Shown: in pieces, positions 32,803-54,012 of the stretch
Numbering within the stretch: position 1 is the stretch's first letter
How the letters are laid out: every line of letters begins with the position of its first letter
Origin: a virus
Length of the DNA stretch: 64,000 nucleotides
Direction: 5' to 3' (one strand)
IMG/VR virus record: IMGVR_UViG_3300029094_000045
Program-made: the position numbers and the translations under genes
The notes under the pieces: generated by a model
What the model saw: the letters and a program-made list of their open reading frames with translations, nothing else
What the model was told of the DNA's origin: nothing
The model's database searches: none

Positions 32803-32958
32803 ATCTCGTATGGGTAGGATCTTTAGCGGTCAGATCCGGCCGCGCCTGTGCGAGATACCACCCCGAAAGGGGAAGTTATCCATGATGTCCTTTCTACGCC
32901 CGCTATTCTCGGCTCGCTCGAAAGAGTGCAGCGTGCCTTTGTAAGCCGAGTATCTTAT

Positions 32959-33455: not shown

Positions 33456-33501
33456 GGGATAACTCGGTGTTGAAGATTGAGTTCAATTCTCAATCATCCC
33501 A
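33456..33501 (+). other. second tRNA mini-helix (acceptor-like stem plus 7-bp T hairpin)
   Basis: gggataa-(12 nt)-gattgag-TTCAATT-ctcaatc-atccc-a; no D or anticodon arms. Confidence 0.25.
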
Positions 33502-33748
33502 ATTCCACCGCGAGGTGGAAGACAGCTTTGCCCATTAGGTCTTTAACAAAATGGGGAATAGGTACATGGTGGTAAAAGGACGATCAAATAATAGCCATGA
33601 CTTCTTTGCTTGACGCCATAAGACTCGGATAGAATGGTCCGATGGGAAGTTGTCCTGCTTGGAGAATCGGGAGTGCAGGTGTACCTAATTTTATATGTAT
33701 ACAAATTTATTTCATATATTAGGAGATGCTGAATTATGGGAGGTTAAT

Positions 33749-34222: not shown

Positions 34223-34270
34223 AAACCGATGTCGAGAGGCGTGCGGGTTCAAGTCCCGCTGGTAGCACCA
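34185..34270 (+). tRNA. tRNA-Leu (anticodon TAA), type II, CCA encoded
   Basis: Acceptor gctacca/tggtagc; D stem gcg/cgc with a 12-nt loop; anticodon stem tcggt/accga; loop cTTAAAa; 13-nt variable arm; T arm gcggg-TTCAAGT-cccgc; A-CCA. Confidence 0.65.
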
Positions 34271-37097: not shown

Positions 37098-38573
37098 ATG
37101 GCGTTCTCTGGTATTAAAACCAAGCTTGGTTCGCCCGAGTGTGAAGAATATTTCAACTCGATTGTTTACCGAAATGACTTCAAGGATGAAGACAATACCA
37201 TTGTGACGATTCTTCGTGCGATGATGAACGAGAAGCGGCTGGCAACTTTTAATGCAAAACCTGACGTGAAGGGCAAGATGCAGGTCCAGACTATCAACAA
37301 GGAAATTCGCTTTACGGGCGAGACTGCAAAAATTGACGCTGGCTACTATGGTGGCGCACATGGCCCTTTCAGTCAGGCAATTATCGGCCTCTGGTTGGTC
37401 TTCATTCCGAACAAAAATGCTTCGGACTACATCAAACAGGTCAAGGAATTCGACGAAGACTATAAGAAGCTTGGTTGGTCTCGTCTGGAAGATGTCTCTC
37501 TCTATCTGGATCGTAGCGGTGAGATTCTGGCGTATCAGAATGAAAAGAAGCAGGCCACAATTCTGTTTGCGCCGACGGCAAAGCGGATTCAGACCATGCA
37601 GATGGCGGCGAGTTGTATTTCTCGAATCTTTCCGTGGGCGTTCAAGGATTGTTCGCTGTCTGAGGACGAAATTGCATTCCTGAAACTGTTGAGTGAGCAG
37701 AAGTATACGGAGTTTAACGCAGCTATGGAAAGAAGCTACGCTGCGTACAACTTCTATGTTAAAAAGCTCCAGACTATTCTGCATGGGTTCTGTGACCAGA
37801 ATTATTCTCGCATGATCAAGAATCAGGAAGAGCGGGTTCGTCGTGCAGAGCGGACTGTTGATGACTATTATCGCAACGTAAGAAGCGCTCAGGACAGCCT
37901 CGAAGAAGAGCAAGGGAAGCTTCTGAGCCTGAGAAATCGAGCTTGTAACGGCGGAGAAGATGAAAAGGAGCTGATTGATTTCTTCTCTTCGAATAAGTCA
38001 ATCACTGTTCTCGGTAAATCCGGACGAGATCTCCGTCTTGGTGTGAATTGTTACCTCAATGACTTCAACGAAGATGTCTTCAAGCAGTATGTTGAGAAAC
38101 AGGATAGGGTGTCCAGTTACATCTATAGCGCAAGCCCTTATGGTCTGGAACTGACGAAGAAGTTATTCCTCGCTATTTGGAAGGAGCATCGCTTCAACTT
38201 GAGAGTTTATTGCGAATGGATTCTGTATGACGATTGCAATGTTGAAGCGGTTTCGCAGTCCAATATGGGAGGTCGTGACGACCTGATGGAAGACCGTATT
38301 CCTCAGCCTCATATCGATGATTACCAGTGCTTCAGAGGCTACACCGGCATTCTGAACGACCTTGCACGTTCTCGTGATTATATCGGAATCATGAGTACAT
38401 TGTTGAGTTCTTCCTCTTCTATCAATTGGACCGATTCTACAGTTGTTTCCAAGCTGATGAAACGGTTGTTTGAAACCAATAAGGATACGAAGTGTCTTGA
38501 GGATAAGGATGGCAACCATTATACCGTGGCAGAGGTCGTTAAAATTCTTGAAGACGAGGCAAAGGCGGCGTAA
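37098..38573 (+). CDS. 491-aa protein of unknown function between the Ubl-like and JAB genes (candidate E2-like or adaptor component)
   Basis: Co-directional and tightly spaced within the cassette. No recognisable motif. Confidence 0.4.
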   Translation: MAFSGIKTKLGSPECEEYFNSIVYRNDFKDEDNTIVTILRAMMNEKRLATFNAKPDVKGKMQVQTINKEIRFTGETAKIDAGYYGGAHGPFSQAIIGLWLVFIPNKNASDYIKQVKEFDEDYKKLGWSRLEDVSLYLDRSGEILAYQNEKKQATILFAPTAKRIQTMQMAASCISRIFPWAFKDCSLSEDEIAFLKLLSEQKYTEFNAAMERSYAAYNFYVKKLQTILHGFCDQNYSRMIKNQEERVRRAERTVDDYYRNVRSAQDSLEEEQGKLLSLRNRACNGGEDEKELIDFFSSNKSITVLGKSGRDLRLGVNCYLNDFNEDVFKQYVEKQDRVSSYIYSASPYGLELTKKLFLAIWKEHRFNLRVYCEWILYDDCNVEAVSQSNMGGRDDLMEDRIPQPHIDDYQCFRGYTGILNDLARSRDYIGIMSTLLSSSSSINWTDSTVVSKLMKRLFETNKDTKCLEDKDGNHYTVAEVVKILEDEAKAA

Positions 38574-38587
38574 AGGAGGTTTGATTT

Positions 38588-39499
38588 ATGCAGCCCATTA
38601 AAATGACTGACGAAATTATTCGCGATGTTATGCAGGAGTTCTACAGTCAGGCTTCTGTTCTCGGTAATCTCCAGACGGATAAATTTTCTTTCAATAAGAG
38701 CTTCTCTAAGCCAGCTAAAGACGCCGTTGAGGTGAATTTCACGCTAGAAGCTTACCATGAAATGTGTGCGCTGATTGACCATTTTTCGACTGAAGTTGCG
38801 TGGCATGGCCTGGTGAAGCGCCTTGATAAGACGCATTTCCAGGTCACAAAAATCCTGATTTATCCTCAGAAGGTGACTGGTGCCACCGTAAATACTGATC
38901 AAGAGGAGTATACCAAGTGGCTTTATGCTCTCAAAGATGAAGAGTTTAATGCAGTTCGTTTTCAGGGACATAGTCATGTAAATATGGCTACTAATCCTAG
39001 CGGTGTTGATATGCAGAATCAGTGGGATATGATCAATCAGCTCAATTCTACTGATTACTATATCTTTATGATTTGGAACAAGCGCCGTGAATACAATGTT
39101 CGCGTAATTGATATGGCTGACAATGTTATCTACAGCGGCAGCGATGTCAAGGTGACTATTGGAGCTCTTGATATGAAAGGGTTTCTCGAAGAGGCAGAAG
39201 CGCTCGTCAAAAAGCCGACACCTGTGTACAACTATGGTACCACCTACGGATCAAACGCAAGAACTTATCCGGGAGGCTCATTCGTTGGTACGACTAGCAC
39301 CGCAACCACAAAGTCGGCAGAAAAGACAGAAACGGAAGCATCGAACCCGGCGCTGAAGACTGTCACCGGTGCTGCAGCTCCCAAGGTGAATAAGGAGAAT
39401 GAGTCTAATCTCATGGGGTACTACAAGAAAAATCCGAACGAGTTGTTGGCCAATTGGAATTCTAGTTGTCTACCTTATGAGGATGCTCTGTCGAATTAA
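38588..39499 (+). CDS. JAB/MPN+ (JAMM) metalloprotease domain protein
   Basis: Exact JAMM signature FQGHSHVNMATNPSGVDMQN (HxHx7Sx2D), with upstream Glu candidates. Confidence 0.65.
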   Translation: MQPIKMTDEIIRDVMQEFYSQASVLGNLQTDKFSFNKSFSKPAKDAVEVNFTLEAYHEMCALIDHFSTEVAWHGLVKRLDKTHFQVTKILIYPQKVTGATVNTDQEEYTKWLYALKDEEFNAVRFQGHSHVNMATNPSGVDMQNQWDMINQLNSTDYYIFMIWNKRREYNVRVIDMADNVIYSGSDVKVTIGALDMKGFLEEAEALVKKPTPVYNYGTTYGSNARTYPGGSFVGTTSTATTKSAEKTETEASNPALKTVTGAAAPKVNKENESNLMGYYKKNPNELLANWNSSCLPYEDALSN

Positions 39500-39516
39500 G
39501 AAAGGAAAATGCACAA

Positions 39517-40197
39517 ATGGATTTGAGTAAGATTGAGATGATTTTTGACCCCGCATCTGTTAAGGGGCGCATTCATATCATCGGCTGTGGTTCGGTCGGT
39601 TCTACTGTGGCTGAACTGTTGGCACGATATGGTTTGACCAAATTCACTCTGTGGGACATGGACTTTGTTGAACCGAAGAATATCGTCAATCAGATGTTCT
39701 TCCAGCAGGATATCGCTCATCCCAAGGTTGAGGCTGTGGGCAACATCCTGTGTAATGTGAATCCTGATATCAAAGAGGACCTGGTTCTGATGCCCAATGG
39801 TTGGCAGGGCGAAACTGTTAAGGGTTACGTGTTCTTGGCGGTGGACAATATCGAGATTCGCCAGCAGTTCTTGGAGAAGAACAAGTACAACATCGATTTA
39901 CTCGGGGTGTTCGACATTCGGACGGGTCTCTATGATGCGCAGTGTTGGTCGGCCGACTGGAAGGATCGTAAGCAGATTGAAAACCTAAAGCGTTCCATGG
40001 CATTCACTCATGAAGAGGCCAAGGCGGCTACGCCGGTATCTGCTTGTGGCGTCGTTCAGGGCGTTGCTCCGACCGTTCGTTTCATCTGCTGTCTGGCAGT
40101 TACGAACTTCATCAATTTCGCGGAAGGCAAGCCGCTGAAGAAGCAGATCGTTGCAACCCCGTTTATTCTGGGTGAAGAGAGCGTCATGGCGTTCTGA
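39517..40197 (+). CDS. E1-like adenylyltransferase of the ThiF/MoeB/UBA family
   Basis: IHIIGCGSVGS (GxGxxG Rossmann); WDMDFVEPKNIVNQMF (D-D-VE-SNL-RQ region); HPKVEAVGNILCNVNPDI; VFLAVDNIEIRQ. Collinear with ThiF/MoeB. 226 aa, with no C-terminal CxxC or rhodanese domain. Confidence 0.7.
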   Translation: MDLSKIEMIFDPASVKGRIHIIGCGSVGSTVAELLARYGLTKFTLWDMDFVEPKNIVNQMFFQQDIAHPKVEAVGNILCNVNPDIKEDLVLMPNGWQGETVKGYVFLAVDNIEIRQQFLEKNKYNIDLLGVFDIRTGLYDAQCWSADWKDRKQIENLKRSMAFTHEEAKAATPVSACGVVQGVAPTVRFICCLAVTNFINFAEGKPLKKQIVATPFILGEESVMAF

Positions 40198-40218
40198 TAA
40201 AATCGCAAATAAATAATC

Positions 40219-40476
40219 GTGATGAATAGTTGCTCTTTTATAAGCAATGCACTCAGGTTAAACCGAGTGTGACGAATTGTCAGGACGAGGTACCCCAGAA
40301 GGGAGGGCACGTGCGCGTGCCATGACGCTCGTCACCTGGTGAATTACGAGGCCACCTCGAAAATGCGAACCAAATACAACGATGAGACGTAGCAGCAAAC
40401 GCGGCCGTGATCTAACGTGCCGGCTAACAAGGCTAACAGAGCTCAGCGGATGCAGGAACCAACCTGTTTAGATCAC
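40219..40476 (+). ncRNA. conserved structured non-coding element, copy B, directly upstream of the RT gene
   Basis: Homologous blocks with copy A. Stem cactc/gagtg at 40250..40269. Internal palindrome ggcacgtgcgcgtgcc. Ends ~30 nt before the RT start codon. Confidence 0.4.
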
Positions 40477-40505
40477 GATTTTTTAAATTACATAAGGAGA
40501 AATAT

Positions 40506-41738
40506 ATGTACATCACATATTGGAATCCGCCTAATACACGGCAGATTACTTTTGATGAAATCATCGCAGGCGTACAGAATGTTGAAGCGCTGCATTATGG
40601 CGGCAGCACCACCTCGACGATTACGGTGTGTCGTAATGACCTTACTCCGCGCCTGCAGAAAATCACCAATATCCCAGATATGATCGCAAAACTTACGGAG
40701 TTTAATCAGAAATATGCAGGACTCGAAGCGTGCGACCTCGCTGCTCATTATGAACATTTTGAGATTCCTAAGAAGTCCGGCGGCTGGCGTCCTATCGATG
40801 CTCCGGATAAGGAATTGTCTGATGCTCTGGTTGAGCTGCGCGAATTACTTCACAGCTTCATGATCGCAGACTATCACACAAATGCTTTTGCTTATATTCC
40901 GAATCGTAGTTTTATCGACGCAGTCCGCAAACATCAGGCTGGTCACATTAAAACGAAAAAGAATGAAGAAACCGGAATACAGACGACAGTGACTTTTGAA
41001 AATCACTGGGCAGTGAAGTTTGACTTGCATGGATTCTTTCCGAGCACAACGCCGGATTTTCTTCTTGGGATGTTGAGCATTATTTATCCGTTCGCTCTGA
41101 TTATGAAGGATGAACGGGGGCACGAACAGCTTGCCAACGCCTTAAAACTTTGTTTCCTCCACGGTGGTTTGCCGCAGGGGACGCCTATCAGTCCATGGCT
41201 TACCAATGTTATGATGATTCCATTTGATCATCTTATCACGCGCAAGCTGTGTTACGGCTATAAGGCAAAAGACGGTATCGAACGTGAATTTACCTATACC
41301 CGTTACGCTGACGATATGATGTTTAGTTGTTATCACAGTTTTGACCCGATGGAGATCCAGCAAATCGTCATCGATGGTTTGAACTTCATCCATGCACCAT
41401 TTACTTTAAATGAAGCAAAAACTCATTACGGCAACCGCCATTCCAGTAAAAACTGGTGCCTTGGTTTGATGTGGAACAAGGATAACCAGATCACTGTTGG
41501 ATGGCGAAATCTGAAGATGTTTCGGTCTGCCATGAAAAACTACATTGATGCGAAAAAGCGTGGCGAAACGTGGGAGCTTGAAGATCTTCAGTCGTTTATG
41601 GGCAAGCTTAATTACTATCATATGGTCGAACCCGATGTAATTGATGATTTGGTTCATCGTTACAATGAAAAATTTGGTGTTGATGTGATGGCTATGCTCA
41701 AAGACGATCTTCGTCTTAAAGATGGCGAAGCCGCGTAA
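40506..41738 (+). CDS. reverse transcriptase of retron/group-II type
   Basis: RT motifs in order: IPKKSGGWRPIDAP (1/2), FDLHGFFPS (A), GLPQGTPISPWLTNVMM (B'), YTRYADDMMFS (C, YxDD), then an LG region. QGxxxSP plus RYADD is retron/group II-like rather than DGR-like (IGxxxSQ). Confidence 0.7.
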   Translation: MYITYWNPPNTRQITFDEIIAGVQNVEALHYGGSTTSTITVCRNDLTPRLQKITNIPDMIAKLTEFNQKYAGLEACDLAAHYEHFEIPKKSGGWRPIDAPDKELSDALVELRELLHSFMIADYHTNAFAYIPNRSFIDAVRKHQAGHIKTKKNEETGIQTTVTFENHWAVKFDLHGFFPSTTPDFLLGMLSIIYPFALIMKDERGHEQLANALKLCFLHGGLPQGTPISPWLTNVMMIPFDHLITRKLCYGYKAKDGIEREFTYTRYADDMMFSCYHSFDPMEIQQIVIDGLNFIHAPFTLNEAKTHYGNRHSSKNWCLGLMWNKDNQITVGWRNLKMFRSAMKNYIDAKKRGETWELEDLQSFMGKLNYYHMVEPDVIDDLVHRYNEKFGVDVMAMLKDDLRLKDGEAA

Positions 41739-42893
41739 GGAGAATATGATGATTAAGCAGTATAAGAATGTCCTTGATGGTATCACGATGGAAGAATTCA
41801 TGGATGCTATTAAAAACGAAAAGAATGTTACAGCGAGAACGGTGTCTGCAATCTTATTTTCGATGATTGATGATCGTGTTCAGGAGGCCATCGATACGGC
41901 CAAAGAAAACATTCCAGACATTCTGATGGCAACGAAAGCACCTCCAGTGGTGGATGATTTCACTGAAGGATACGAGCTGGATGAAATTCGTGGCATCTGG
42001 CGTGTCGTGGACTCTACATGGTATCGGAATAAGAAATTCTATCTGATGAAGGCAGAACAAGATCCCGATTACTGTGGACCTATCGCGGTGGACGAGAACG
42101 GAAAGCTTGTTGCGGAAGAACTGTGCGACGGATTCGATTGCGACTTTGAAGATGCCGCAGACGAATATTTTGACGAAAACAAATTTAAAGGTTTCGGCCT
42201 TATCGGAGAGGAGGATATGTACTAATGGTTGAGCTTATGTGTCGTGATGGCAAAATCTCTCAGAGCGACCTCGAAAAACTAGCAGATACGATTTATTATT
42301 CTACCGGTATCGAGGTCAACGTGATTGCGGAACAGGACCGACGAGCCATGGTGTTCTGGGGGCCGGAAGATGTAAAGGGGATTATTGAGTCCTCGCACAT
42401 CCAGTCTATTGACCCGGACAACACGAGTATCTGTGACACAATCGTCGCTACGGCAGAGCCTAAGATTCATCAGGCGATGCTGGAGGCCGGTAATGATGTT
42501 CTGGTGGATGAAGTGTACGAGCTGGCCGAGTCGTTAGGAGAACATTTCGACGACTCAGATGTCGAGTTGGGTGATTCTTTATACGACGATTTTGAAGTTT
42601 CTTCCATGAAATAAAACAACGTAGATAAAAATCATTTTGTATATCACTCTATAAGAGCGAGCATTACACCTAAGGTGGATGTTTAGAAGAATACTAAGGA
42701 CCGGCCGCTGCGCTCTGATCAATCCCATCGTCGCGCAGCTTGGCCTCGAAACAAATCCTACGTCGAGTGCAATTTCAACTGCTCTCGATCCAATGAAATC
42801 GCTTCGCTCAGATATTGGATCGCTCGCATTGGAAATTTCCCTCGATAAACGGAGCTACGGATTTTAGAAAATGATTTTTGAAAGGATATAAAA

Positions 42894-43163
42894 ATGGAGT
42901 CGATAATGTATAAGCCGGGTGATAGAGTTACGATTCGTTCGGATTTGGAAGAGTACGAATGTTACTGTATGTTGTCTGGCCCCAAAAAAGAGAAAGGAAT
43001 GTTCTGCACCGTGCCGAGCATGGTTGCACAGGCCGGGAAAGTACTTACAATCGAAAAAATTCTAGAAGACGGAAGAGGTTATCAGCTTAAAGGATGTAAT
43101 CTCGGTTGGACGGATTCTATGTTTGAGTCAGCAAATGAATGTATTTGCGATTCGCTGCTGTGA
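42894..43163 (+). CDS. tandem-family paralog 1 (PGDRVxIRxDL...WTDxMFE...ECICDSLL)
   Basis: 89 aa. It carries the N-terminal domain shared by the 11 tandem paralogs and the family's C-terminal tail. Confidence 0.55.
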   Translation: MESIMYKPGDRVTIRSDLEEYECYCMLSGPKKEKGMFCTVPSMVAQAGKVLTIEKILEDGRGYQLKGCNLGWTDSMFESANECICDSLL

Positions 43164-43172
43164 GGTATTGAG

Positions 43173-43442
43173 ATGAAATATTTCCACGATATTGGTGATG
43201 CGGTTGTCGTAAAATCCGATCTTCATACTGGTATTGATTATTACATGAAGTCTGGTCCGGAAACTCCAATATATAATAATGTCACCGAGGAAATGAAAAA
43301 GTATGCTGGTAAAATTGTTCACATTGCGGACCACATAAACGGGCAGTATTTGATTAAAGAAGACGATTGTGAATGGATATGGACAGATGACATGTTCGAG
43401 AATGTTTCGGATGAGGAATGTTTTTGTGTGAGCCTGTTATGA
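43173..43442 (+). CDS. tandem-family paralog 2 (ends EECFCVSLL)
   Basis: Carries the shared N-domain and tail. Confidence 0.55.
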   Translation: MKYFHDIGDAVVVKSDLHTGIDYYMKSGPETPIYNNVTEEMKKYAGKIVHIADHINGQYLIKEDDCEWIWTDDMFENVSDEECFCVSLL

Positions 43443-43460
43443 TAGAAAGGGTGAGATAAA

Positions 43461-44285
43461 ATGGCCGAAGCTGTTAAAAGGAAAAAATATGAAAAGTTGG
43501 TCCAATTCCCCAAAGTCTCTGATAGCACTCACTTCACCATGAGTGAAGAAGAACTTCAGAAGATGATTCGGGATATTGCGGCTGCGGCTCAGAAGTCTAG
43601 AAAGCGTAAACCTAAACCTACATATAGTCTCTATACGAAGGATGGACGCAGAAAGCCCACGCCAGCCGATCCGATTCGTTCGAAAGAAGATTTCTGGAAA
43701 CTGGCTGATTATTTGGGTTCTACTGGAGATCCTAAATTCCAGCTGCGGAATAAGACGATTTTTATTTTTGGCTGTAGTATCGGCGTTCGCTGCGGCGATT
43801 TGTTGAACCTAAAAACAGGAGATGTTTATGAGGCGAATGGTTCGGTGAAAGAACATCTCGAACTAATGGAAGAAAAAACGCGCAAAATCAACGTTTGTAA
43901 AATTCCCAAAATGGCCGTGGATGTTCTGGAACAGTATCGTGATGAACAGAAATTCTCTATCGATCAGCAGAATTATCTATTCCGCAGCCGTAAAAATGGT
44001 TCTCTAAATGTGCGCAGTTTCTATCACATCTTGAAGAACGCAGGCAAAGTATGCGGGCTGGATATTGACCTGTCTACTCATACGATGCGTAAAACTTATG
44101 CAATGGCAGCTCTTCAAACAGCAGATGGAACAGAGGCGTCTGGCGATACGTTGGAGTTGCTTCAGGTGAAATTCAAACACAGTGATAAGCGCGTTACTAT
44201 GCGATACATTAAGGCGGATCAGGATAAAATCGATAAGATGTCCAATCGCGTTTCAGAATGGTTTGAGGATGGAGGAACTAAATGA
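43461..44285 (+). CDS. tyrosine recombinase (integrase-family catalytic domain only), embedded in the paralog array
   Basis: Box I GVRCGDLLNLK; box II LSTHTMRKTYA (HxxR); catalytic Tyr in KRVTMRYIK. 274 aa with no N-terminal arm-binding domain. Its stop overlaps the start of paralog 3. Confidence 0.6.
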   Translation: MAEAVKRKKYEKLVQFPKVSDSTHFTMSEEELQKMIRDIAAAAQKSRKRKPKPTYSLYTKDGRRKPTPADPIRSKEDFWKLADYLGSTGDPKFQLRNKTIFIFGCSIGVRCGDLLNLKTGDVYEANGSVKEHLELMEEKTRKINVCKIPKMAVDVLEQYRDEQKFSIDQQNYLFRSRKNGSLNVRSFYHILKNAGKVCGLDIDLSTHTMRKTYAMAALQTADGTEASGDTLELLQVKFKHSDKRVTMRYIKADQDKIDKMSNRVSEWFEDGGTK

Positions 44286-44551
44286 CGGATTATTTATATC
44301 ATCCCGGCGATAGGGTTTATGTTCGACCTGATCTTACGGATACTGAAGAGTATAAAATGTTGTCTGGGAAAAGTGAAGGCGAGTCTTGGGGAATCTACTC
44401 TTGGATGAAGAACTACGCAGGAAAAGAGATTGTTATTCTAAAAATTGAATTAGCCCGTGGCGTTTACACAGCACAAGGAATTAATGGCTGCATTTGGTCT
44501 GATGAAATGTTTGAGCCTCTAAACGAATGTTTCTGCGGCTCGTTATTATGA
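44282..44551 (+). CDS. tandem-family paralog 3 (ends NECFCGSLL)
   Basis: Carries the shared N-domain and tail. Confidence 0.55.
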   Translation: MTDYLYHPGDRVYVRPDLTDTEEYKMLSGKSEGESWGIYSWMKNYAGKEIVILKIELARGVYTAQGINGCIWSDEMFEPLNECFCGSLL

Positions 44552-44561
44552 GGACCTGTAA

Positions 44562-44843
44562 ATGAAGAACACCAAAAAATATATGTATCAACCCGGAGAC
44601 ATTGTTATTGTTCGAAAGGATTTAGATAAATATAAAAGCTACAAAATGTTTGCTGGCCCATATAAAGATAAAACATGGGGCATTCATCCGGATATGTGCC
44701 TTATGAGGGGACAAGCGGTTCATATTTCTGGGATTCATGAATATGGTGCTTATTTGATTTCGGAAACTGATGAATTTGTTTGGACAGATGAGATGTTTTC
44801 TGGATTAGCATACAATGAATGTTGTTGTAATTCGCTACTATAA
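44562..44843 (+). CDS. tandem-family paralog 4 (ends NECCCNSLL)
   Basis: Carries the shared N-domain and tail. Confidence 0.55.
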   Translation: MKNTKKYMYQPGDIVIVRKDLDKYKSYKMFAGPYKDKTWGIHPDMCLMRGQAVHISGIHEYGAYLISETDEFVWTDEMFSGLAYNECCCNSLL

Positions 44844-44867
44844 AATTAAACGACGGGGGAGATAGAA

Positions 44868-45143
44868 ATGGCATCGAGGTATTATCGATATAAAAACGGA
44901 GAAGAGGTTATTGTTCGTGCTGATTTAGATTATAATACTCGTTATTATATGCGTTCTGGTTATCGAGCTGACGAACAGTATACAATGCTTAGCTATGGCC
45001 AATCTCAGAAATTAGGAAAACCTGTACATATCAAAGACAAACGAGGTGGGCGATACATTATTGAAGAAGACTACGGCGGTTCTGCTTGGACTGACGATAT
45101 GTTTGAGTCTTCGAATGAATGTTGTTGCAGTTCTTTGCTGTGA
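44868..45143 (+). CDS. tandem-family paralog 5 (ends NECCCSSLL)
   Basis: Carries the shared N-domain and tail. Confidence 0.55.
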   Translation: MASRYYRYKNGEEVIVRADLDYNTRYYMRSGYRADEQYTMLSYGQSQKLGKPVHIKDKRGGRYIIEEDYGGSAWTDDMFESSNECCCSSLL

Positions 45144-45151
45144 GGTGTGAA

Positions 45152-45445
45152 ATGACAAAAGAATATCTTTATAACGTCGGAGATGTTGTAAGAATCCGCG
45201 AGGGGCTTGATCAGAATGAGTCTTATCGTATGCAGTCCGGCCCTTCGGATGGCTATAATCCCGGAATTAATAAATCTATGACAAGGCGCGGCGGAGAAGT
45301 TCATATGATACTGGGTTATGCCGCCTTGGGTTGTTATCATATCGACGATAACCCTAACGCAAAAGATTCTCATGGAAATTGGAGTTGGGCCGATGAAATG
45401 TTAGAACCTGTAGAGAATGGGTGCTACTGCGAGAGTTTGTTGTGA
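45152..45445 (+). CDS. tandem-family paralog 6 (ends NGCYCESLL)
   Basis: Start taken at the ATG of MTKEYLYN, after GAGGTG. Carries the shared N-domain and tail. Confidence 0.55.
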   Translation: MTKEYLYNVGDVVRIREGLDQNESYRMQSGPSDGYNPGINKSMTRRGGEVHMILGYAALGCYHIDDNPNAKDSHGNWSWADEMLEPVENGCYCESLL

Positions 45446-45453
45446 GGTGTGAT

Positions 45454-45723
45454 ATGAGTGAACTTCTATATAAGCTGGGTGACAAGGTTACAATCCGTTC
45501 TGATTTGAAAGAGGGCACACTGTATCCTGTTTTGTACGGACCAGCTGCTATCAAGAAAACTCTTTATTGCAGTCCTGGTATGGCAAAGCTTAGAGGCGAG
45601 ACTTTTGAAATCGACCGGTATACCTTCGATGGAAAGTTTTACAGATTGAAGGGAGTCGATTGGAACTGGACAGAGTCTGTGTTTGAAGATCCAAAAGAGT
45701 GCTTCTGTGAAAGTTTGTTATGA
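45454..45723 (+). CDS. tandem-family paralog 7 (ends KECFCESLL)
   Basis: Start taken at MSELLYKLGDKV. Carries the shared N-domain and tail. Confidence 0.55.
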   Translation: MSELLYKLGDKVTIRSDLKEGTLYPVLYGPAAIKKTLYCSPGMAKLRGETFEIDRYTFDGKFYRLKGVDWNWTESVFEDPKECFCESLL

Positions 45724-46003
45724 GGTATCAATGTGAAAGAGATATGGTGTGTTATTGAATCTAGCTCTGAAGGCGAGGTTTTTAGCCCCGATTTTTTCAA
45801 TTCAAAAGAAAAAGCAGTAGAATTTATCGAAGAAGAGACGAAAGAGTGTCTAGCTAATATGATGGATCTTCCAGAAGCTGGTAGGATGACGGATATCGTT
45901 GATGGAGATCCGATTGGTGAGGTGTGGACTGATAAATATAGTTGGGTATGGCATGGTTTTGAAGTTACTAAAGAAATTAAAAATATTTTAAAGGAGAATA
46001 ACA

Positions 46004-48070
46004 ATGTCTGACTTTAAGGAATTTCGTGCGCTGCTGCAGGACCACTTCAATGAGATGGTGAAGGATGGCGCACCTCTGTTTATCACCAATGCAGACGAGG
46101 ATAAGCTATATGGTCTCTATTTGGACAGCTTCCCGGCTGGTACGAACTCCATCTTCCGTAAGCGGCGTGAGTATGATTGCTCCTGCTGCCGTCGTTTCGT
46201 AAAGAATATTGGTAAGCTGGTTTCCTTTATGGATGGTCAGATGGTCACCGTCTGGGATTTCGATACCAAGTCCGACGTTTATCAGCCGGTTGTGGATGCG
46301 CTGGCTACTTATGTGAAAACCTGCGCTGTTGTGAATCCGTATTATGTTAGCCGCAATATGATCTCTGATGGCAAGTTCGGCACGGAGATGAACTATGAGT
46401 ATGATGCTAATCATAAGGCGGTTCACACCTGGGATCATTTCGCTGTCGAGATTCCTCAGCGGTTCATTGTCAATTCCTGTGATGTGACTACCAAGATGGC
46501 CGAGTGGCGTGATTCTGCTAATGTGTTCAAGCGTTCTCTGGAGGAGCTGACCATGGGTGCCGTGGACACCGTACTTGAGCTGATTGCGCAGAACAGCCTG
46601 TATCGCGGCAAGGAGTTTGAATCTCTGGTTCGTGGCTTCAAAATCGATAAGCGAGCGTATGATCGTCTGCCTGATGAAAAGAAGTCCGCTTATGTTTGGA
46701 TGGCTCCCGGCGGTGCGTCGATGAACCGGCTTCGTATTCGTAACACCGCTATCGGCACCCTTCTTATCAATTTGAGCGAAGGTATGGATGTGGATTCCGC
46801 CGTTACCGCCTTTGAGAAGGTTGTCGCTCCTGCCAATTATAAGCGTCCCAAAGCTATTTTCACTAAGAAGATGCTGGAAGATGCACAGAAAACCGTTACT
46901 GAACTGGGTTACATGAACAGTCTGGGTCGCCGATTTGCCACTCTGGATGATATTACTGCCAACAATATTCTGTTCTGCAACCGCGATGCCGCTCCTCGTG
47001 TGCTTGGCGCTATGAATCCGTTTGAAGCAATGGCTAAGACTGTTGCGATTGATCCCAAGAAGTTTGGCCGTGCAGAAGAAATTGGCATCGACAAGTTCAT
47101 CAAGGATGTACTGCCGACTGCGGCTGGCTTAGAACTGTTCATGGAGAATCGGTTCGAAAAGAATATGATGTCTCTGATTGCTCCGCAGGATAAAAATGCG
47201 CCGTCTATGTTCAAGTGGGCAAATGGATTCAGTTGGGCGTATACAGGTAACATGACTGACAGCCAGATTCGAGAGAACGTCAAGGCTGCTGGCGGCAAGG
47301 TGGATGGCGTGCTGCGTTTCTCGATCCAGTGGAACGATGTGCCGGGTGAATGGGATGAAAACGATGAGGATGCTCATTGCATTGAACCTGGTAAGAATCA
47401 TATCTATTATGGCAATAAGTGGAATCCTCGTACTAATGGCCGCCTAGATGTTGATATCCGTTGTCCTAATCAGGGTAAAGCTGCGGTCGAGAATATCACC
47501 TGGCCTGACATCAAAAAGATGAAGGAAGGCGAGTACAGCTTCTATGTAAACTGCTACGCTAATCGTGGTGGTAAAACTGGTTTCCGGGCTGAAATCGAGT
47601 TCGATGGCAACATCTACTCTTTCAACTACGATAAGCCGCTGCATGGTGGTCAGAATGTCGCCGTGGCAAAAGTCACGCTGAAGGACGGCAAGTTCTCTAT
47701 CAAGGAGCTGCTGCCCAGTTCTACCAGCACCCGCGAGATCTGGGGTGTGAATTCCAATCAGTTCGTACCTGTGTCTGTGGCGATGTACTCTCCGAACTAC
47801 TGGGACGAACAGACCGGCAATGGCAATCGTCACTACTTCTTCATGCTCAAGGATTGCGTCAACCCTGAAAAGCCGAACGGATTTTACAACGAATTCCTGA
47901 AGGCGGAATTGCTACAGCATAAGCGAGTATTTGAGGCGCTGGGTTCTCAGATGGCAGTTCAGTCGGTGGACGATCAGCTGTCTGGTGTTGGTTTCTCTGA
48001 GACTCAGCACAACAGCTTTATTGTTAAAGTGCAAGGGGCAACGGAGCGAGTTCTGAAAGTGGTGATTTGA
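46004..48070 (+). CDS. 688-aa hypothetical protein inserted within the paralog array
   Basis: Long ORF with an RBS and no recognisable motif. Its stop overlaps the start of paralog 8 (TGATG). Confidence 0.45.
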   Translation: MSDFKEFRALLQDHFNEMVKDGAPLFITNADEDKLYGLYLDSFPAGTNSIFRKRREYDCSCCRRFVKNIGKLVSFMDGQMVTVWDFDTKSDVYQPVVDALATYVKTCAVVNPYYVSRNMISDGKFGTEMNYEYDANHKAVHTWDHFAVEIPQRFIVNSCDVTTKMAEWRDSANVFKRSLEELTMGAVDTVLELIAQNSLYRGKEFESLVRGFKIDKRAYDRLPDEKKSAYVWMAPGGASMNRLRIRNTAIGTLLINLSEGMDVDSAVTAFEKVVAPANYKRPKAIFTKKMLEDAQKTVTELGYMNSLGRRFATLDDITANNILFCNRDAAPRVLGAMNPFEAMAKTVAIDPKKFGRAEEIGIDKFIKDVLPTAAGLELFMENRFEKNMMSLIAPQDKNAPSMFKWANGFSWAYTGNMTDSQIRENVKAAGGKVDGVLRFSIQWNDVPGEWDENDEDAHCIEPGKNHIYYGNKWNPRTNGRLDVDIRCPNQGKAAVENITWPDIKKMKEGEYSFYVNCYANRGGKTGFRAEIEFDGNIYSFNYDKPLHGGQNVAVAKVTLKDGKFSIKELLPSSTSTREIWGVNSNQFVPVSVAMYSPNYWDEQTGNGNRHYFFMLKDCVNPEKPNGFYNEFLKAELLQHKRVFEALGSQMAVQSVDDQLSGVGFSETQHNSFIVKVQGATERVLKVVI

Positions 48071-48342
48071 TGGAACTTAAATATCATGTCGGCGATAAGG
48101 TTATGATTCGTCCGGATCTTAAAGCGGGCAAAGTGTGTGAGATGTATTCGGGACCAATGCGTGGACGATATACTTACAGTATCACACCTAGTATGACACA
48201 GTTGGTTGGTAAATTTGCTACGATTGAAAGAATTTGTGATGGGGGAACTGGATATAGACTTAAAGAATATGGTTTCTCATGGACCGATGGAATGCTGCTG
48301 CCGGCTGATTTAAACGAGTGCGTTTGTGCTTCGCTGTTGTGA
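48067..48342 (+). CDS. tandem-family paralog 8 (ends NECVCASLL)
   Basis: Carries the shared N-domain and tail. Confidence 0.55.
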   Translation: MMELKYHVGDKVMIRPDLKAGKVCEMYSGPMRGRYTYSITPSMTQLVGKFATIERICDGGTGYRLKEYGFSWTDGMLLPADLNECVCASLL

Positions 48343-48351
48343 GGTGGTCTG

Positions 48352-48627
48352 ATGAAATATCGATACGAACCCGAAGACGCAGTTTTTGTTCGGCCTGATT
48401 TGAAACGTGGCTCCAACTATTGGATGCGTTCTGGGGTGAATGAAAATAAGCAATGTCTTGTAGCTGTTGGTGATATGTTAAATTTCGTAGGTAAAATGGT
48501 TCATATTTCTGGATATTCTCGGGATGGTTTTTATTACATCAAAGAAGATCCGGGGCAATGGTGCTGGACTGATGAGATGTTCGTTGGTCTAGCTGGCAAT
48601 GAGTGCTACTGCGAATCTCTGCTGTGA
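48352..48627 (+). CDS. tandem-family paralog 9 (ends NECYCESLL)
   Basis: Carries the shared N-domain and tail. Confidence 0.55.
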   Translation: MKYRYEPEDAVFVRPDLKRGSNYWMRSGVNENKQCLVAVGDMLNFVGKMVHISGYSRDGFYYIKEDPGQWCWTDEMFVGLAGNECYCESLL

Positions 48628-48635
48628 GGTGCCAA

Positions 48636-48911
48636 ATGGACTATCGGTACAAAATAGGAGAGGCTGTTTGGGTTAGAGACGACCTCGAATATGCAGCCTC
48701 TTATGATATGACGCCTGGCCCTTATCCAAAAGGCAATCGTAATGTCGTGACAGATAAAATGGCCAAACTCCATGGGCGGCTTGTCCATATTAAAAATTAT
48801 TCTGCTGCCGGCCAATATTATGTGGAAGAAACAAATAGTCTTCAATGGACCGACGATATGTTTGAAGGCTCAGAAAATAATAATGAATGCCTCTGCGAAT
48901 CTCTACTGTGA
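48636..48911 (+). CDS. tandem-family paralog 10 (ends NECLCESLL)
   Basis: Start taken at MDYRYKIGEAVWV. Carries the shared N-domain and tail. Confidence 0.55.
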   Translation: MDYRYKIGEAVWVRDDLEYAASYDMTPGPYPKGNRNVVTDKMAKLHGRLVHIKNYSAAGQYYVEETNSLQWTDDMFEGSENNNECLCESLL

Positions 48912-48919
48912 GGCTTGTT

Positions 48920-49207
48920 ATGGATTATGTAATTCCACTTCGATTTAAGCCTGGCGATCATGTTGTGGTTCGTCCGGATTTGAATATCAATACGGTCTAT
49001 CAAACATTTGGAGGCAAGAATGCCGGTTATCGTACAGCCCCAACGATGAATATGGTTCGCTTTGCGGGAATGGAATCTGAGATTAAAGAGTATTCTAGGT
49101 CTCAAAAAACTGTAAAACTGAAGTACTGTGGTTTTTGTTGGACAGAACAAATGCTGATTCCCAAAAGTTTTGTAGAACAGGAATGTGTTTGTGAATCACT
49201 TTTATAA
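48920..49207 (+). CDS. tandem-family paralog 11 (ends QECVCESLL)
   Basis: Start taken at MDYVIPLRFKPGDHVVV. Carries the shared N-domain and tail. Confidence 0.55.
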   Translation: MDYVIPLRFKPGDHVVVRPDLNINTVYQTFGGKNAGYRTAPTMNMVRFAGMESEIKEYSRSQKTVKLKYCGFCWTEQMLIPKSFVEQECVCESLL

Positions 49208-49621
49208 AAATAAAGGAGAGATAATTATGGAAAAGAATCTGTTTGAAATTGCGACCCGTAATCGCTATCGCTTCAACTATAAGGGCGTTATGACTGTTGA
49301 AGATCTGTGGGATCTGAACGTTGAGGCTCTGGATGCAATCTTTAAGACTCTGAACCGCCAGAAGAAGACTGCCGATGAGGACTCCTTGCTGGCCGCGAAG
49401 AGTGCCGAGGATACTGAACTGGCAAACAAGATCGAGCTGGTCAAGTACATCGTGTCTGTCAAGCTGGCCGAGTCCGAGGCTCGTGTAAATGCTGCCGAGA
49501 AGAAGGCGCAGCGCGATAAGATTATGAAGATCGTGGCTAAGAAGAAGGATAAGGAGCTGGAAGATATGGATGTTGATCAGCTGATGAAGAAGCTGGAAGA
49601 GCTGAACTAAGGAGAAGCAAG

Positions 49622-50725
49622 ATGAAGATTGTTGAAAGTTCTGGCCGTTTACATCTGTATGGCGATGACATGAAAGCATATGACCAGATTCCGGCTGGTA
49701 CATACGATATCTGCTTTTCCAAGATGACCGGTTTTTATCTGGTTCGTCGTCCTGACATGGCGGTTGATGAAAAGGTGTATGGTGTCGCCGGGGAAAAGGC
49801 TGCGAAGGTAATGAGCACGTTCAAGGTGTTTACCCGAAATCTTGGTGTAATCCTCAGCGGTGATAAGGGCATCGGTAAGTCTATGACTGCTAAAATGATT
49901 GCTAAGGCCGCTATTGATGAGGGCTATCCTGTTATTTTGGTGAGTGAATACGTCCCCGGTATTGCAAGTTTTATTGAGTCAATCACACAGGAAGTTATGA
50001 TTCTGTTTGACGAGTTTGATAAAACATTCCGTAAAACAGATGACGATACGCCACAGGATACTATGCTTAGTCTATTCGACGGCACTACCGCAGGCAAGAA
50101 ACTGTTTGTGGTCACGTGTAATGAACTGCGGAGCCTGAATGACTATCTGGTAAATCGTCCCGGTCGTTTTCATTATCACTTCAGATTTGATTATCCAAAG
50201 GCGGACGAAATTCGCACTTATCTACAAGACAAGCTCGACCCCAAGTATTATGGAGAAATCGAATCTGTTATTCAGTTTTCTTCTCGTGTCGCTCTGAATT
50301 ATGATTGCCTGCGTTCTATTGCATTTGAGTTGAACCTTGGCACTGCATTTAAGGATGCGATTTTGGATTTGAACATCGTCAATCTGGACGATTTGAGTTA
50401 CAAGATTACCGCAATAACTGAAAGCGGTAAAAGGGGCTCTACTACTGGCAGTTACGATCTCTTTAGCGAGGGCCAAGATTATTCCGATTATTTTACTCCG
50501 ATCGTCGGAAATGACAGTTTTAAAATTCGATTCAATACTAACGATATTGAGTTTGATCCCAAGACAAATAGGTGTCTGATCATGGGTGAAAATTTGGATG
50601 TTATAAATCCTTACGACAAGGATACTGAGTGGGAAAAGGAAGACTATGCAGCGTTCGAAAAGGAAACTATCAAATGTATTGTGTTTGAACGCCGCAGTGA
50701 CCGCAGTCTGCATTACGCAGTCTAA
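49622..50725 (+). CDS. AAA+ family ATPase
   Basis: Walker A GDKGIGKSMTAKMIA and Walker B VMILFDEFDK. Confidence 0.5.
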   Translation: MKIVESSGRLHLYGDDMKAYDQIPAGTYDICFSKMTGFYLVRRPDMAVDEKVYGVAGEKAAKVMSTFKVFTRNLGVILSGDKGIGKSMTAKMIAKAAIDEGYPVILVSEYVPGIASFIESITQEVMILFDEFDKTFRKTDDDTPQDTMLSLFDGTTAGKKLFVVTCNELRSLNDYLVNRPGRFHYHFRFDYPKADEIRTYLQDKLDPKYYGEIESVIQFSSRVALNYDCLRSIAFELNLGTAFKDAILDLNIVNLDDLSYKITAITESGKRGSTTGSYDLFSEGQDYSDYFTPIVGNDSFKIRFNTNDIEFDPKTNRCLIMGENLDVINPYDKDTEWEKEDYAAFEKETIKCIVFERRSDRSLHYAV

Positions 50726-50736: not shown

Positions 50737-51564
50737 ATGGTCAAAGCAAATCATTATGAAATCAGTTCTTTCCCTGATGGCACCCCACTGATCAAGAAGG
50801 ATCTGACTATCAATTATCTCAATGTGATCAGTATCGTCTGGACATTTGAATCCATGGCCGAACTTCCCACGGTCATTATGATCGCAAAGGACGCAAGGGA
50901 TAATGGGGCAGAAGTCGAACTGTTTATGCCGTATATTCCGAACGCTCGTATGGATCGCGTTCATAGTGGCGAGGATGTGTTCACCCTCAAGTGGTTTGCA
51001 GAGGAGATCAATCGATGTGAATTCAGCCGCGTTGTTGTATTTGATCCTCACAGTGATGTGGCTCCGGCTCTGATTGATCGTTGTGAGGTACGAACTCCGA
51101 TTCGTGAGATCTGTCAGGCAATCGAAGAAAGCAAGCCTGATGTGATTTACTTCCCGGATGCCGGCGCAATGAAACGATACGAGGAAACTGTTCACTGGGC
51201 ACTCGATCGTGTCGGTTGTAAGGCTTATATCATTCACGGAGACAAGAAGCGTGAGTGGAAGACCGGAAAGATTCTCGGTTTGGATGTCACCGGTTATCCT
51301 CCCAAGGGCGGCAAAGTTCTGATGATTGATGACATTTGCTCTTACGGAGGCACCATGTTCTATTCGGCTGAAAAGCTGAAGATGTTGGACGTTGGAGATA
51401 TTGATATGTATGTCAGTCATTGTGAGAACAGTATTCTGGACAAGGAGCGCGGTCATCTGTTTGACGACCCGGAGCTGATTCACAAGGTATATACCACGGA
51501 CAGTATCTTCACTGGCCATCACGACAAGATTACTGTATTAGAGCATCATTGGGATGAGGACTGA
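50737..51564 (+). CDS. ribose-phosphate pyrophosphokinase (Prs) family enzyme; candidate ADP-ribose pyrophosphate synthetase (Adps) of an NAD+ reconstitution pathway
   Basis: Collinear with Prs: FMPYIPNARMDR (Prs IPYFGYARQDR), VVVFDPHSD (Prs TVDLHA), VIYFPDAGAMKRYEE, and the PRPP-binding loop VLMIDDICSYGGTM (Prs VLVDDMIDTGGTL). Confidence 0.6.
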   Translation: MVKANHYEISSFPDGTPLIKKDLTINYLNVISIVWTFESMAELPTVIMIAKDARDNGAEVELFMPYIPNARMDRVHSGEDVFTLKWFAEEINRCEFSRVVVFDPHSDVAPALIDRCEVRTPIREICQAIEESKPDVIYFPDAGAMKRYEETVHWALDRVGCKAYIIHGDKKREWKTGKILGLDVTGYPPKGGKVLMIDDICSYGGTMFYSAEKLKMLDVGDIDMYVSHCENSILDKERGHLFDDPELIHKVYTTDSIFTGHHDKITVLEHHWDED

Positions 51565-51824
51565 CATGAAGCATGCAAAAGGTGAAATCCTTAGTGCATA
51601 TCAGCGCTTAACGAAAAGTATCAAATATGGAGATGCATACTGGTCTGAAAAAGCAATGATAAGTGATGCTCTGAGTGATTACTTCAATCGGATAGAGAGC
51701 AAGAAAGTCGTAATCGATCCAAAATATAAAAGCTACAGATGTCCAAAGTGCAATACAGCATTAATTGGTCAATATGATCACTACTGCGGACAATGTGGTC
51801 AGAAATTGGACTGGAGGATTAAAA

Positions 51825-53303
51825 ATGATCAATATTAACCCAATGCTGCTGTGTGACTTCTACAAGACAACTCACAGTAAGCAGTTTCCGGCCGGCACCA
51901 CCAAGCTGGTCAGTTACTTTACTCCTCGTATGAGCCGTCTGGATGGCGTGGATGAAGTCGTCGTGTTCGGCATTCAGGCATTCTGCAAGGATTATCTGGT
52001 GCAGTATTTCAATGACAACTTCTTCGACGAACCAAAGTGTATTGTAATTCCTCAGTATAAGCGATATCTGGATGCGACCATTGGCAAGGATGCTTACGAT
52101 CTGAGCAAGATTGCAGCACTACATGATCTGGGATATCTTCCTGTTGAAATCAAGGCTCTGCCAGAAGGTACTCGTTGCCCGATCCATGTGCCGTTCCTTG
52201 AGATGAGCAATACGCACCCTGATTTCGCATGGGTTCCGCAGTTCCTCGAATCTTTTACGAGTTCTGAGCTGTGGCATCCGATGATTTCTGCAACGGTCGG
52301 AACTCTGTATCGCGATATCGTGGACAAGTATTACGATGAAACCGTTGAAGAGGGTGTGCCCCATGCTCGTGCTCTGGGTGATTTCAGCTTCCGCGGTCAG
52401 GAGTGTATGCAGTCGGCAGTTAAGTCAAGCGCCGGTTGGTGTCTGAGTTTTCTGAATACGGCTACTGTACCTGCGATTCCGTATCTGGAAGAAATGTATC
52501 GCTGCAATTGTGAAGAAGAGCCTGTTGCGTTTGGCGCTGTTAGCACAGAGCATAGTGTGATGTGTTCTAACTTCGCAGTCGATGGCGATGAGATCACTTT
52601 CATCCGCCGGGCGCTGACTGAGCTGTATCCGAATATGAGTTTCAGTATGGTGTCTGATTCCTATGATTACTGGAATCTGGTCGATAATATTCTGCCGCAG
52701 CTCAAGGATGAAATCATGGCGCATAATGGCACGCTGCTGATTCGTGGCGACTCTGGTGACCCGGTCGAAATCGTTACGCAGACCGTCTATCATCTGTGGG
52801 ACATCTTCGGCGGCACAGTCAATAGCAAGGGTTATAAGGTGCTCGACCCTCATGTAAAGGCTCTGTATGGAGACTCTATTACTGTGCAGCGCTGTGAAAA
52901 GATTTATGCCGAACTCAAAGCACACGGTTTCGCCTGCAACAATGTAAGTCTCGGCGTTGGTTCCTTCTCCATGCAGTGTATTGAACAGAATGGGCAGCTG
53001 AAACCGTTCACCCGTGATACGTTCGGCATGGCAGTCAAGGCAACTTATGGCGTGGTTAACGGCAAGGAGATCCAGATCTTCAAAGACCCAAAGACCGATA
53101 CCGATCACTTCAAGAAAAGTCTGAAGGGTATGTGCTATGTCACCAAGGATGATTCTGGGAAGCTGATTTGCACAGATGGTCTGATGAATCATGCCGCGCA
53201 TTCGGATGGGAATCTTCTGCAGACCGTATTCCGTAATGGCGCGATGATCAAGGAGTACAGTCTGAAGGAAGTCCGCGACCGACTGTGGAAAGGGAAGTTT
53301 TAA
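51825..53303 (+). CDS. nadV: nicotinamide phosphoribosyltransferase (Nampt/NadV) family enzyme; candidate NadV or nicotinamide-ADPR transferase (Namat)
   Basis: Family signatures LLCDFYKTTHSKQFP, PVEIKALPEG, GDFSFRGQE, VSDSYDYWN, IRGDSGDPVE, KGYKVLDPHVKALYGDSIT match the Nampt blocks NTDSYK.TH, IKAVPEG, GYRG, VSDSYD, IRPDSG, KGYK..P...GDG. Start taken at the ATG at 51825 after GGAGG. Confidence 0.7.
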   Translation: MININPMLLCDFYKTTHSKQFPAGTTKLVSYFTPRMSRLDGVDEVVVFGIQAFCKDYLVQYFNDNFFDEPKCIVIPQYKRYLDATIGKDAYDLSKIAALHDLGYLPVEIKALPEGTRCPIHVPFLEMSNTHPDFAWVPQFLESFTSSELWHPMISATVGTLYRDIVDKYYDETVEEGVPHARALGDFSFRGQECMQSAVKSSAGWCLSFLNTATVPAIPYLEEMYRCNCEEEPVAFGAVSTEHSVMCSNFAVDGDEITFIRRALTELYPNMSFSMVSDSYDYWNLVDNILPQLKDEIMAHNGTLLIRGDSGDPVEIVTQTVYHLWDIFGGTVNSKGYKVLDPHVKALYGDSITVQRCEKIYAELKAHGFACNNVSLGVGSFSMQCIEQNGQLKPFTRDTFGMAVKATYGVVNGKEIQIFKDPKTDTDHFKKSLKGMCYVTKDDSGKLICTDGLMNHAAHSDGNLLQTVFRNGAMIKEYSLKEVRDRLWKGKF

Positions 53304-53537
53304 TGATTCTCGAAATTAGTGCCGAAACGGCGTGTGAAATAATCAGCCATCCACTGGAATCGTCTTCTGATAGATTTTGGCTGCAAGAAAATGACCGTTA
53401 TGTTGGAATCGATAATTCTGAGCATTCGGCATGGGTCGAAGACTTCTCCACAAAAGAAGAATGCCTTAATTGGCTCGAAGAGAATCAAAAAGATGACAAG
53501 TAACCAACAGAGATGCTGTCGAATCGAAGGTGAAAAC

Positions 53538-54011: not shown

Positions 54012-54012
54012 T

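Follow-up and report, generated by a model that had tools for sequence, protein, structure and literature searches.

A tyrosine recombinase gene within a variable array of SH3-domain genes of a large human-gut phage is probably a backbone gene unrelated to array copy-number change

The subject of this report is a small tyrosine recombinase gene (REC) of a large human-gut phage, which lies inside a tandem array of short paralogous genes (ARR). The DNA analyzed, referred to here as the window, is a stretch of 64,000 nucleotides (nt) from the IMG/VR record IMGVR_UViG_3300029094_000045 and represents part of a phage genome whose family members measure 137-150 kb (about 145 kb). A preliminary description of this stretch had suggested that the recombinase exchanges the array genes at their conserved ends in the manner of a shufflon or an integron. 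We arrived at a different reading, to which we assign a probability of roughly 0.6: REC has no mechanistic connection with the array, whose evolution proceeds by unequal crossing-over. REC is best read as a backbone Xer-like recombinase, whose relatives include the small 'second integrases' found in phages of Firmicutes.

The array consists of 11 paralogs of about 90 amino acids (aa) spanning positions 42894-49207, and REC was found between the second and the third copy, as the preliminary description had stated. The genes, together with a non-coding element that precedes them, are as follows.

42615-42893, plus strand: non-coding structured element of 279 nt at the head of the ARR/REC gene string
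42894-43163, plus strand: ARR copy 1, ortholog group A, a stand-alone Mind-bomb-type SH3 domain ending in NECICDSLL
43173-43442, plus strand: ARR copy 2, ortholog group D, directly 5' of REC
43461-44285, plus strand: REC, small Xer-like tyrosine recombinase of 274 aa with an intact catalytic hexad and no canonical core-binding domain
44282-44551, plus strand: ARR copy 3, ortholog group E, the ATG of which overlaps the REC stop codon
44562-44843, plus strand: ARR copy 4
44868-45143, plus strand: ARR copy 5
45152-45445, plus strand: ARR copy 6
45454-45723, plus strand: ARR copy 7
45733-46011, plus strand: p92, a non-ARR gene and part of the second array interruption (45733-48070)
46004-48070, plus strand: DUF8224 (PF26675) / phrog_1735 protein of 688 aa, second interruption of the ARR array
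48070-48342, plus strand: ARR copy 8
48352-48627, plus strand: ARR copy 9
48636-48911, plus strand: ARR copy 10
48920-49207, plus strand: ARR copy 11

The stop and start codons flanking REC had been described as overlapping. This holds for the downstream side, where a 4-nt ATGA (44282-44285) is shared with the start of ARR copy 3, but not for the upstream side, where an 18-nt spacer containing a Shine-Dalgarno sequence follows ARR copy 2. The spacers of ARR copies 4-7 measure 8-24 nt and also carry a Shine-Dalgarno sequence.

For comparison of the locus we assembled 58 loci (the window and 57 relatives), and an ARR profile together with marker proteins was mapped onto all of them. From IMG/VR 56 related contigs were recovered, many of which measure 137-150 kb. 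The closest relative in GenBank, and the sole close one, is MT835544, an unannotated human-faecal scaffold that shares 90% nucleotide identity with the window and is colinear with it across 30 kb. Apart from this scaffold, which represents the same phage, no close ARR homologs were found in GenBank phages.

Assignment of REC to the tyrosine recombinases, including its length and coordinates, was confirmed by three lines of evidence. REC matched the Pfam family Phage_integrase (PF00589) over residues 93-254 with an E-value of 3.9e-14 and 53.2 bits, which is above the superfamily cutoff of 27.1. It also matched PHROG 216 ('integrase') with an E-value of 1.8e-40, and here residues 35-267 aligned with positions 21-240 of the 301 profile positions. 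Moreover, the catalytic residues (R110, K139/K142, H207-x-x-R210, H240 and Y249) were invariant across 19 homologs with identities down to 28%, and they line up with those of XerA and XerD. XerA, XerH and XerD are the nearest solved relatives of REC in both sequence and fold, and thus the preliminary description's own alternative, an unrelated gene of the XerC/D type, is favored. None of the NCBIfam equivalog cutoffs was reached (XerA_Arch 68.5 bits with a cutoff of 220, XerD 52.1 with 329.6, XerC 42 with 335), and the top match in this collection, NF040815 ('site-specific tyrosine recombinase/integron integrase'), scored 68.5 bits against its cutoff of 220. On the basis of its sequence REC is probably an active, catalytically competent recombinase, and since the catalytic residues are conserved, catalysis by this protein appears to matter.

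The AlphaFold model of REC involves a disordered N-terminus (residues 1-24), a helix (29-48), a low-confidence linker, a second helix (75-87) and the catalytic fold (91-270). A four-helix core-binding domain is lacking in this model, which shows just one helix (29-48) and disorder before residue 75, and neither the model nor a Pfam search revealed arm-binding or core-type N-terminal DNA-binding domains. Thus, the enzyme had been called catalytic-domain-only with good reason, and this label is essentially right.

Among known systems, close parallels to REC are the 'second integrases' of temperate Firmicutes phages, which belong to the same hidden Markov model (HMM) family as REC (PHROG 216; phIS3501 p22, Javan306_0024, Athena gp36/37). 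The proteins of Streptococcus phage (Javan306_0024), Bacillus phage Athena (gp36/37) and phIS3501 (p22) share 28-35% identity with the catalytic domain of REC. Like REC, they start with a PIRSKxD helix, lack arm-binding and core-binding domains and have no adjacent attP. They differ in size, since they comprise 180-200 aa whereas REC carries an additional N-terminal extension of about 70 aa, and they differ in context. The second integrases lie at the early/late boundary of temperate Streptococcus and Bacillus phages of about 30-40 kb, 3' of ArpU/Cro-type regulators and 5' of HNH and terminase genes, and these phages also carry a normal integrase. In contrast, REC is found between SH3-domain genes of a phage of about 145 kb. 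The role of the small second recombinases in Firmicutes phages has been stated to be unclear (PMC3335513).

Each ARR protein is a stand-alone barrel of the Mind-bomb-type SH3 (SH3_15-like) class, followed by a disordered C-terminal tail. In 404 of the 521 ARR copies (loci L001-L057) this tail ends in C-x-C-x-S-L-L, and the Cys at position -5 is almost invariant. In the commonest lineage a small Cys/His-rich open reading frame (about 66 aa, MQNPCHYCVAPKRYPGCHDHCQ...; L003, 7774-7975) lies between ARR group D and REC, and this reading frame is missing in the lineage of the window.

The tail end, the stop codon and the Shine-Dalgarno sequence form one of just three conserved nucleotide blocks across the paralogs of the window. 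A junction consensus had been proposed for these gene ends, and it is real, since 8-9 of the 11 window copies match it at 62-81%. A typical example (48598-48631, plus strand) reads AATGAGTGCTACTGCGAATCTCTGCTGTGAGGTG and contains the codons for NECYCESLL, the stop codon and the Shine-Dalgarno sequence. However, when 519 ARR genes from the window and the 57 related loci were analyzed, which yielded 260 distinct junctions, the consensus turned out to be more degenerate than noted before. For both Cys codons TGT and TGC were used at a ratio of about 1:1, the Ser codon came from the TCN as well as from the AGY family, and for the Leu pair all combinations of CTN and TTR occurred. TGA (164 junctions) was found as stop codon along with TAA (95 junctions). 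The information content of the GGTG 3' of the stop codon was only about 0.7 bit, which is what a Shine-Dalgarno sequence would show. It can be seen from these codon frequencies that the conservation is of the peptide-level type (NECxCxSLL, followed by a stop codon and a GAGG/GGTG Shine-Dalgarno sequence) with free synonymous positions. A recombinase DNA site would not tolerate the switch between the TCN and AGY codon families, and therefore the junction does not qualify as such a site. Inverted repeats or dyad symmetry were not detected at the junctions; the repeats of the array are direct only (62-81% identity). When 12 junctions were folded as single-stranded DNA, they did not form attC-like structures better than shuffled controls (z-scores between -0.88 and +1.32).

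The gene order at the locus was the same everywhere: p491, a JAMM-like gene, ThiF, a reverse transcriptase (RT) gene, p129, one to three ARR genes, REC, two to six ARR genes, p92 (not always present), DUF8224, one to five ARR genes, p141 and an AAA gene, all of them co-oriented on one strand. Clustering of 521 ARR copies into ortholog groups gave the colinear order A D REC E (V) H C/S (M) B p92 DUF8224 (K/L/R) (F/Q) G J I. About 30 architectures were found among the 58 loci, and they differ by presence or absence of genes only; p92, which does not belong to ARR, is likewise gained and lost at gene boundaries. Inversions or reordering of ARR genes were not observed in the 58 loci, except for locus L044, in which a divergent M-like copy (81% identity) is present at a different position. 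In locus L035 a deletion fused the 3' end of gene C out of register to the middle of gene G, which left gene fragments behind and removed DUF8224. DUF8224 was also deleted in locus L025, and because of these two losses it is considered dispensable. Thus, the copy number of the array is very dynamic, yet there is no inversion or shuffling. The comparison of array order and copy number among relatives, which had been put forward as a way to check the exchange hypothesis, therefore brought out the expected variability in number but not in order.

To map the crossovers, we aligned the junction of each derived adjacency to both parental junctions in the nearest genome and located the switch between informative sites. 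For the ten well-resolved indels the following intervals were obtained (nt, counted from the first base of the stop codon).

G>p141: -32 to -31
F>J: -28 to -26
C>B: -26 to -13
L>I: -17 to +6
G>I: -13 to -7
Q>I: -7 to +7
N>p92: -7 to +5
J>p141: -7 to +1
M>J: -6 to -1
L>G: -1 to +7

All ten crossovers fell into the last 32 nt or so of the gene or into the Shine-Dalgarno sequence, and this is in line with the earlier prediction that breakpoints should be found at gene ends. They occupy at least four mutually exclusive positions, each within an identity run of 4-12 nt, and mosaic marker patterns were seen around some of them. Tyrosine recombinases exchange strands at fixed positions, which are 6-8 bp apart. 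The scattered crossover positions are therefore better explained by short-homology unequal crossing-over. In the recombining pairs the longest tract of high identity was the block of tail, stop codon and Shine-Dalgarno sequence (for C>B it measured 33 nt, two of them mismatched), and the longest exact match between non-adjacent ARR copies of one genome measured 14-26 nt. A comparable case is the lpl cluster of S. aureus, a cluster of tandem paralogs whose copy number and composition vary via crossovers in a short conserved segment, and which is reshaped by homologous recombination at this block (Tsuru and Kobayashi 2008, PMC2568036). There the conserved block lies in mid-gene and gene halves are shuffled, whereas the ARR block consists of the 3' end and the Shine-Dalgarno sequence, and whole genes are gained or lost.

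REC was present in all 57 related loci with a median identity of 70%, a value comparable to those of neighboring genes. It was also kept in the most divergent lineage (L062, REC identity 50%), which carries only two ARR genes, one on each side of REC, and the C-termini of these two proteins differ in that they lack the CxSLL motif. In this lineage DUF8224 directly abuts p127, the homolog of p141, which is followed by the AAA ATPase, as is the case in Bacillus phage TsarBomba. This arrangement suggests that ARR expanded around backbone genes rather than that REC was inserted as part of a cassette machine. The trio of DUF8224 (688 aa), p141 and AAA/nSTAND3 ATPase (46004-50725) is syntenic with Bastillevirinae Bacillus phages (TsarBomba, 139430-143040, L086), with about 64% nucleotide identity to their counterparts for DUF8224, and in the gut phage family ARR genes are inserted between DUF8224 and p141. 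Outside this family REC and ARR occur independently of each other. No ARR genes were found near distant REC homologs (27-38% identity), which reside in unrelated phages and prophages. Conversely, the ARR domain (2618 cluster representatives) is widespread without REC, and many of these proteins carry 2-6 repeats in one polypeptide, without the Cys-containing tail.

These data bear directly on the proposal that REC excises, inserts or swaps ARR 'cassettes' at the conserved ends of the genes. Several observations are compatible with it: REC lies within the array in every lineage, the copy number is highly variable, and the indel breakpoints are precise to the gene boundary (within about 35 nt of the stop codon), with six of the ten intervals fitting one region. 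An array of short co-oriented genes beside a tyrosine recombinase, the number of which varies between relatives, is also reminiscent of integrons (IntI, attI, attC). However, no site was found at the nucleotide level, neither as a dyad or inverted repeat nor as an attC-like hairpin; synonymous junction positions are free up to the two Ser codon families and two stop codons; and the crossovers took at least four mutually exclusive positions, with one deletion out of register. No NCBIfam integron-integrase model reached its cutoff. Moreover, REC lies inside the array, is co-oriented and co-transcribed with it rather than divergent at one attI-like end, and the putative cassettes are paralogs of a single family, each with its own Shine-Dalgarno sequence. 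REC has also been retained by the L062 lineage, whose ARR proteins are devoid of the C-terminal motif. As for shufflons (Rci of IncI plasmids) and other inversion systems based on tyrosine recombinases, they share with this locus a recombinase adjoining segments with conserved ends, but shufflons need inverted sfx repeats and produce inversions, whereas the array contains direct repeats only and, apart from the displaced M-like copy in L044, showed neither inversion nor permutation. We therefore consider REC-driven cassette exchange very improbable. The same low standing applies to a variant, according to which REC is a relaxed-specificity recombinase promoting gain and loss of whole SH3-gene cassettes at the stop codon/Shine-Dalgarno region. 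Its sole support comes from the clustering of crossovers near the stop codon and from the ancient ARR-REC-ARR arrangement, and we regard it as highly doubtful.

Some observations do weigh against an array that is independent of REC and against an ordinary Xer-like enzyme. The crossovers are strikingly concentrated around the stop codon, a single stop/Shine-Dalgarno exchange region would accommodate six of the ten intervals, and not one of the ten fell into the WTDxMF block, which is equally well conserved; this clustering leaves a small residual probability for an involvement of REC. ARR genes have been present on both flanks of REC in every lineage since the common ancestor of the family. The lack of a normal core-binding domain is unusual among Xer or Cre enzymes. 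Finally, no recombination site for REC was found in the 64-kb window, with about 85 kb of the genome lying outside of it. A search of the window for lox/dif-like sites (11-nt arms, 5-9-nt spacer) yielded four matches compared with 0-4 in shuffled sequences, and none of them was near REC. Thus, REC resembles Xer (XerA, XerH, XerD) and Cre recombinases in its best sequence and fold matches and in its full R-K-H-R-H-Y set, but differs from them by the missing N-terminal core-binding domain and by scores far below the equivalog cutoffs, and in the window the search for dif/lox-like sites gave matches at chance level.

A lysogeny gene had also been suggested. REC could in this case act either as temperate-phage integrase or as multimer resolvase of a phage-plasmid, and its membership in the phage-integrase superfamily would fit such a role. 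Large Bacillus 'Tyroviruses' carry Xer-like recombinases, for which plasmid or integrated prophage stages have been proposed (PMC9703825). Two long contigs point in the same direction, ERZ15609803 NODE_28 (L093; 204,017 bp, REC at about 99 kb) and ERZ4567395 NODE_4 (L091; 446,555 bp, REC at about 244 kb). They are much longer than the typical contigs of 137-150 kb, carry exact REC homologs far from the contig ends and could be integrated copies, concatemers or chimeras. On the other hand, no integrated copy was found when one genome per species was searched for 185,579 bacterial and archaeal species, and close REC relatives were confined there to a pair of short contigs (12.5 and 4.7 kb) from one metagenome-assembled genome. 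REC lies in the middle of the genome within a co-oriented gene string without adjacent non-coding attP, it has neither an arm-binding nor a core-binding domain, and repressor, partition or plasmid-replication genes were not recognized in the 64-kb window. The tRNA genes, the transfer-messenger RNA (tmRNA), an RNA polymerase-like protein of its own and the NAD-salvage genes are as in large virulent phages. In view of these data a lysogeny or plasmid-prophage function of REC is unlikely.

Another conceivable target is the 279-nt element that opens the gene string, on which REC might act as on an invertible switch of the FimB/FimE type or as on a res/cer-like site. REC has the size of FimB/FimE and gave weak matches to tyrosine DNA invertase models (PRK09870, 5.9e-6; PRK09871, 3.5e-5). 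An inverted repeat of 15 nt (42627-42641 and 42865-42879; 93% complementary, 223 nt apart) closes the element; the arms of this repeat change in concert between lineages, and the element's equivalent in the L062 lineage (9747-10000) lies directly upstream of REC. However, the same orientation was observed in all 49 distinct versions from the 58 loci, no promoter-like site was found within the element, and the invertase model scores (26.1 bits for PRK09870 and 23.4 for PRK09871) stayed far below the cutoffs of 221 and 222. The internal hairpins exhibit compensatory changes, which a structured RNA leader would explain no less well. A switch operated by REC is thus quite improbable. The element, whose length is conserved in nearly all relatives, might function as structured RNA or as a site in the DNA, and it could serve as candidate substrate of REC. 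An Rfam search of the region 40100-43000 (E <= 1) gave no match, and a pattern search for a repeated promoter-like motif common to the inverted-repeat arm and other intergenic sites was not above chance.

Returning to the reading in which recombinase and array are independent, we propose the following scenario. Backbone genes (REC and the DUF8224-p141-AAA trio) were present first, and the ARR genes spread around them by tandem duplication and are gained and lost through unequal, homology-guided crossing-over. The crossovers land in the block of about 35 nt, whose conservation results from its coding for the tail, including the stop codon, and for the ribosome-binding site of the next gene. This part of the scenario has strong support in the data. 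REC, which shares the orientation of its closely packed neighbors, may in turn carry out site-specific recombination on the replicating DNA of the phage at a site outside the array. For instance, it might act as Xer/Cre-like resolver of multimers or of a circular replicative form, in parallel to the Firmicutes second integrases. This specific resolvase role is no more than tentative.

The genes upstream of the array deserve a brief description. The RT (40506-41738) is of the retron type and matched the NCBIfam retron St85 family with an E-value of 2.5e-41, which is below the cutoff of this model. It is preceded by a GC-rich non-coding region of 308 nt (from 40198), which could encode the non-coding RNA of the RT and for which there was no Rfam match. 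A 50-nt piece of this upstream region recurs at 27437-27486 with 82% identity. Mutagenic retrohoming by this RT, as in diversity-generating retroelements, was considered and rejected, since there was no pair of template and variable repeats, the recurrence at 27437-27486 was the sole upstream repeat, and the RT is of the retron type. Further upstream (37098-40197) there is a conserved trio consisting of a 491-aa protein without family match, a 303-aa protein and a ThiF/E1-like adenylyltransferase, which also gave a partial match to an anti-phage cap2-type protein. The 303-aa protein contains a JAMM-like HSHx7SxxD motif, which was read from the translation and had no HMM support. The trio resembles a phage-encoded module for ubiquitin-like conjugation and deconjugation.

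Elsewhere in the window seven tRNA genes and a tmRNA gene (tag ANNNSYRCAA) were located within 29204-34270, and genes for PhoH and an Mre11-like exonuclease are present. An 852-aa protein with an RNA-dependent RNA polymerase (RdRP) fold (7921-10479, minus strand) matched the Pfam family RdRP PF05183 with an E-value of 3.3e-12. This is the fold of the single-subunit phage RNA polymerases of the YonO and crAss types, and the sequence suggests that the phage may use its own promoters. A type-P5 twister ribozyme was detected at 22298-22376 (50.7 bits, above the Rfam gathering threshold). Downstream of the array (50737-54771) there is an NAD+ salvage/synthesis cluster comprising genes for NAMPT, NAD synthetase, a phosphatase and a protein resembling ribose-phosphate pyrophosphokinase, to which Macro and isochorismatase genes are added in relatives. 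This cluster is similar to known phage counter-defence pathways against NAD depletion.

If REC did exchange the ARR genes as cassettes, the locus would represent a new kind of phage-encoded cassette system, and with a recombinase of relaxed specificity it would amount to an integron-like system, carried by a phage, that diversifies a family of host-interaction proteins. The evidence points instead to the juxtaposition of two ordinary components. One is a backbone recombinase of the Xer-like kind from a widespread family of small recombinases, and the other is a fast-evolving tandem family of stand-alone SH3-domain genes that changes through unequal crossing-over. Retention of REC in all 57 relatives of these abundant gut phages argues for an important role of the enzyme in the phage. 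The ARR array, in turn, provides a clean natural example of gene-boundary-precise copy-number change, which is driven by a peptide-constrained 3' block.

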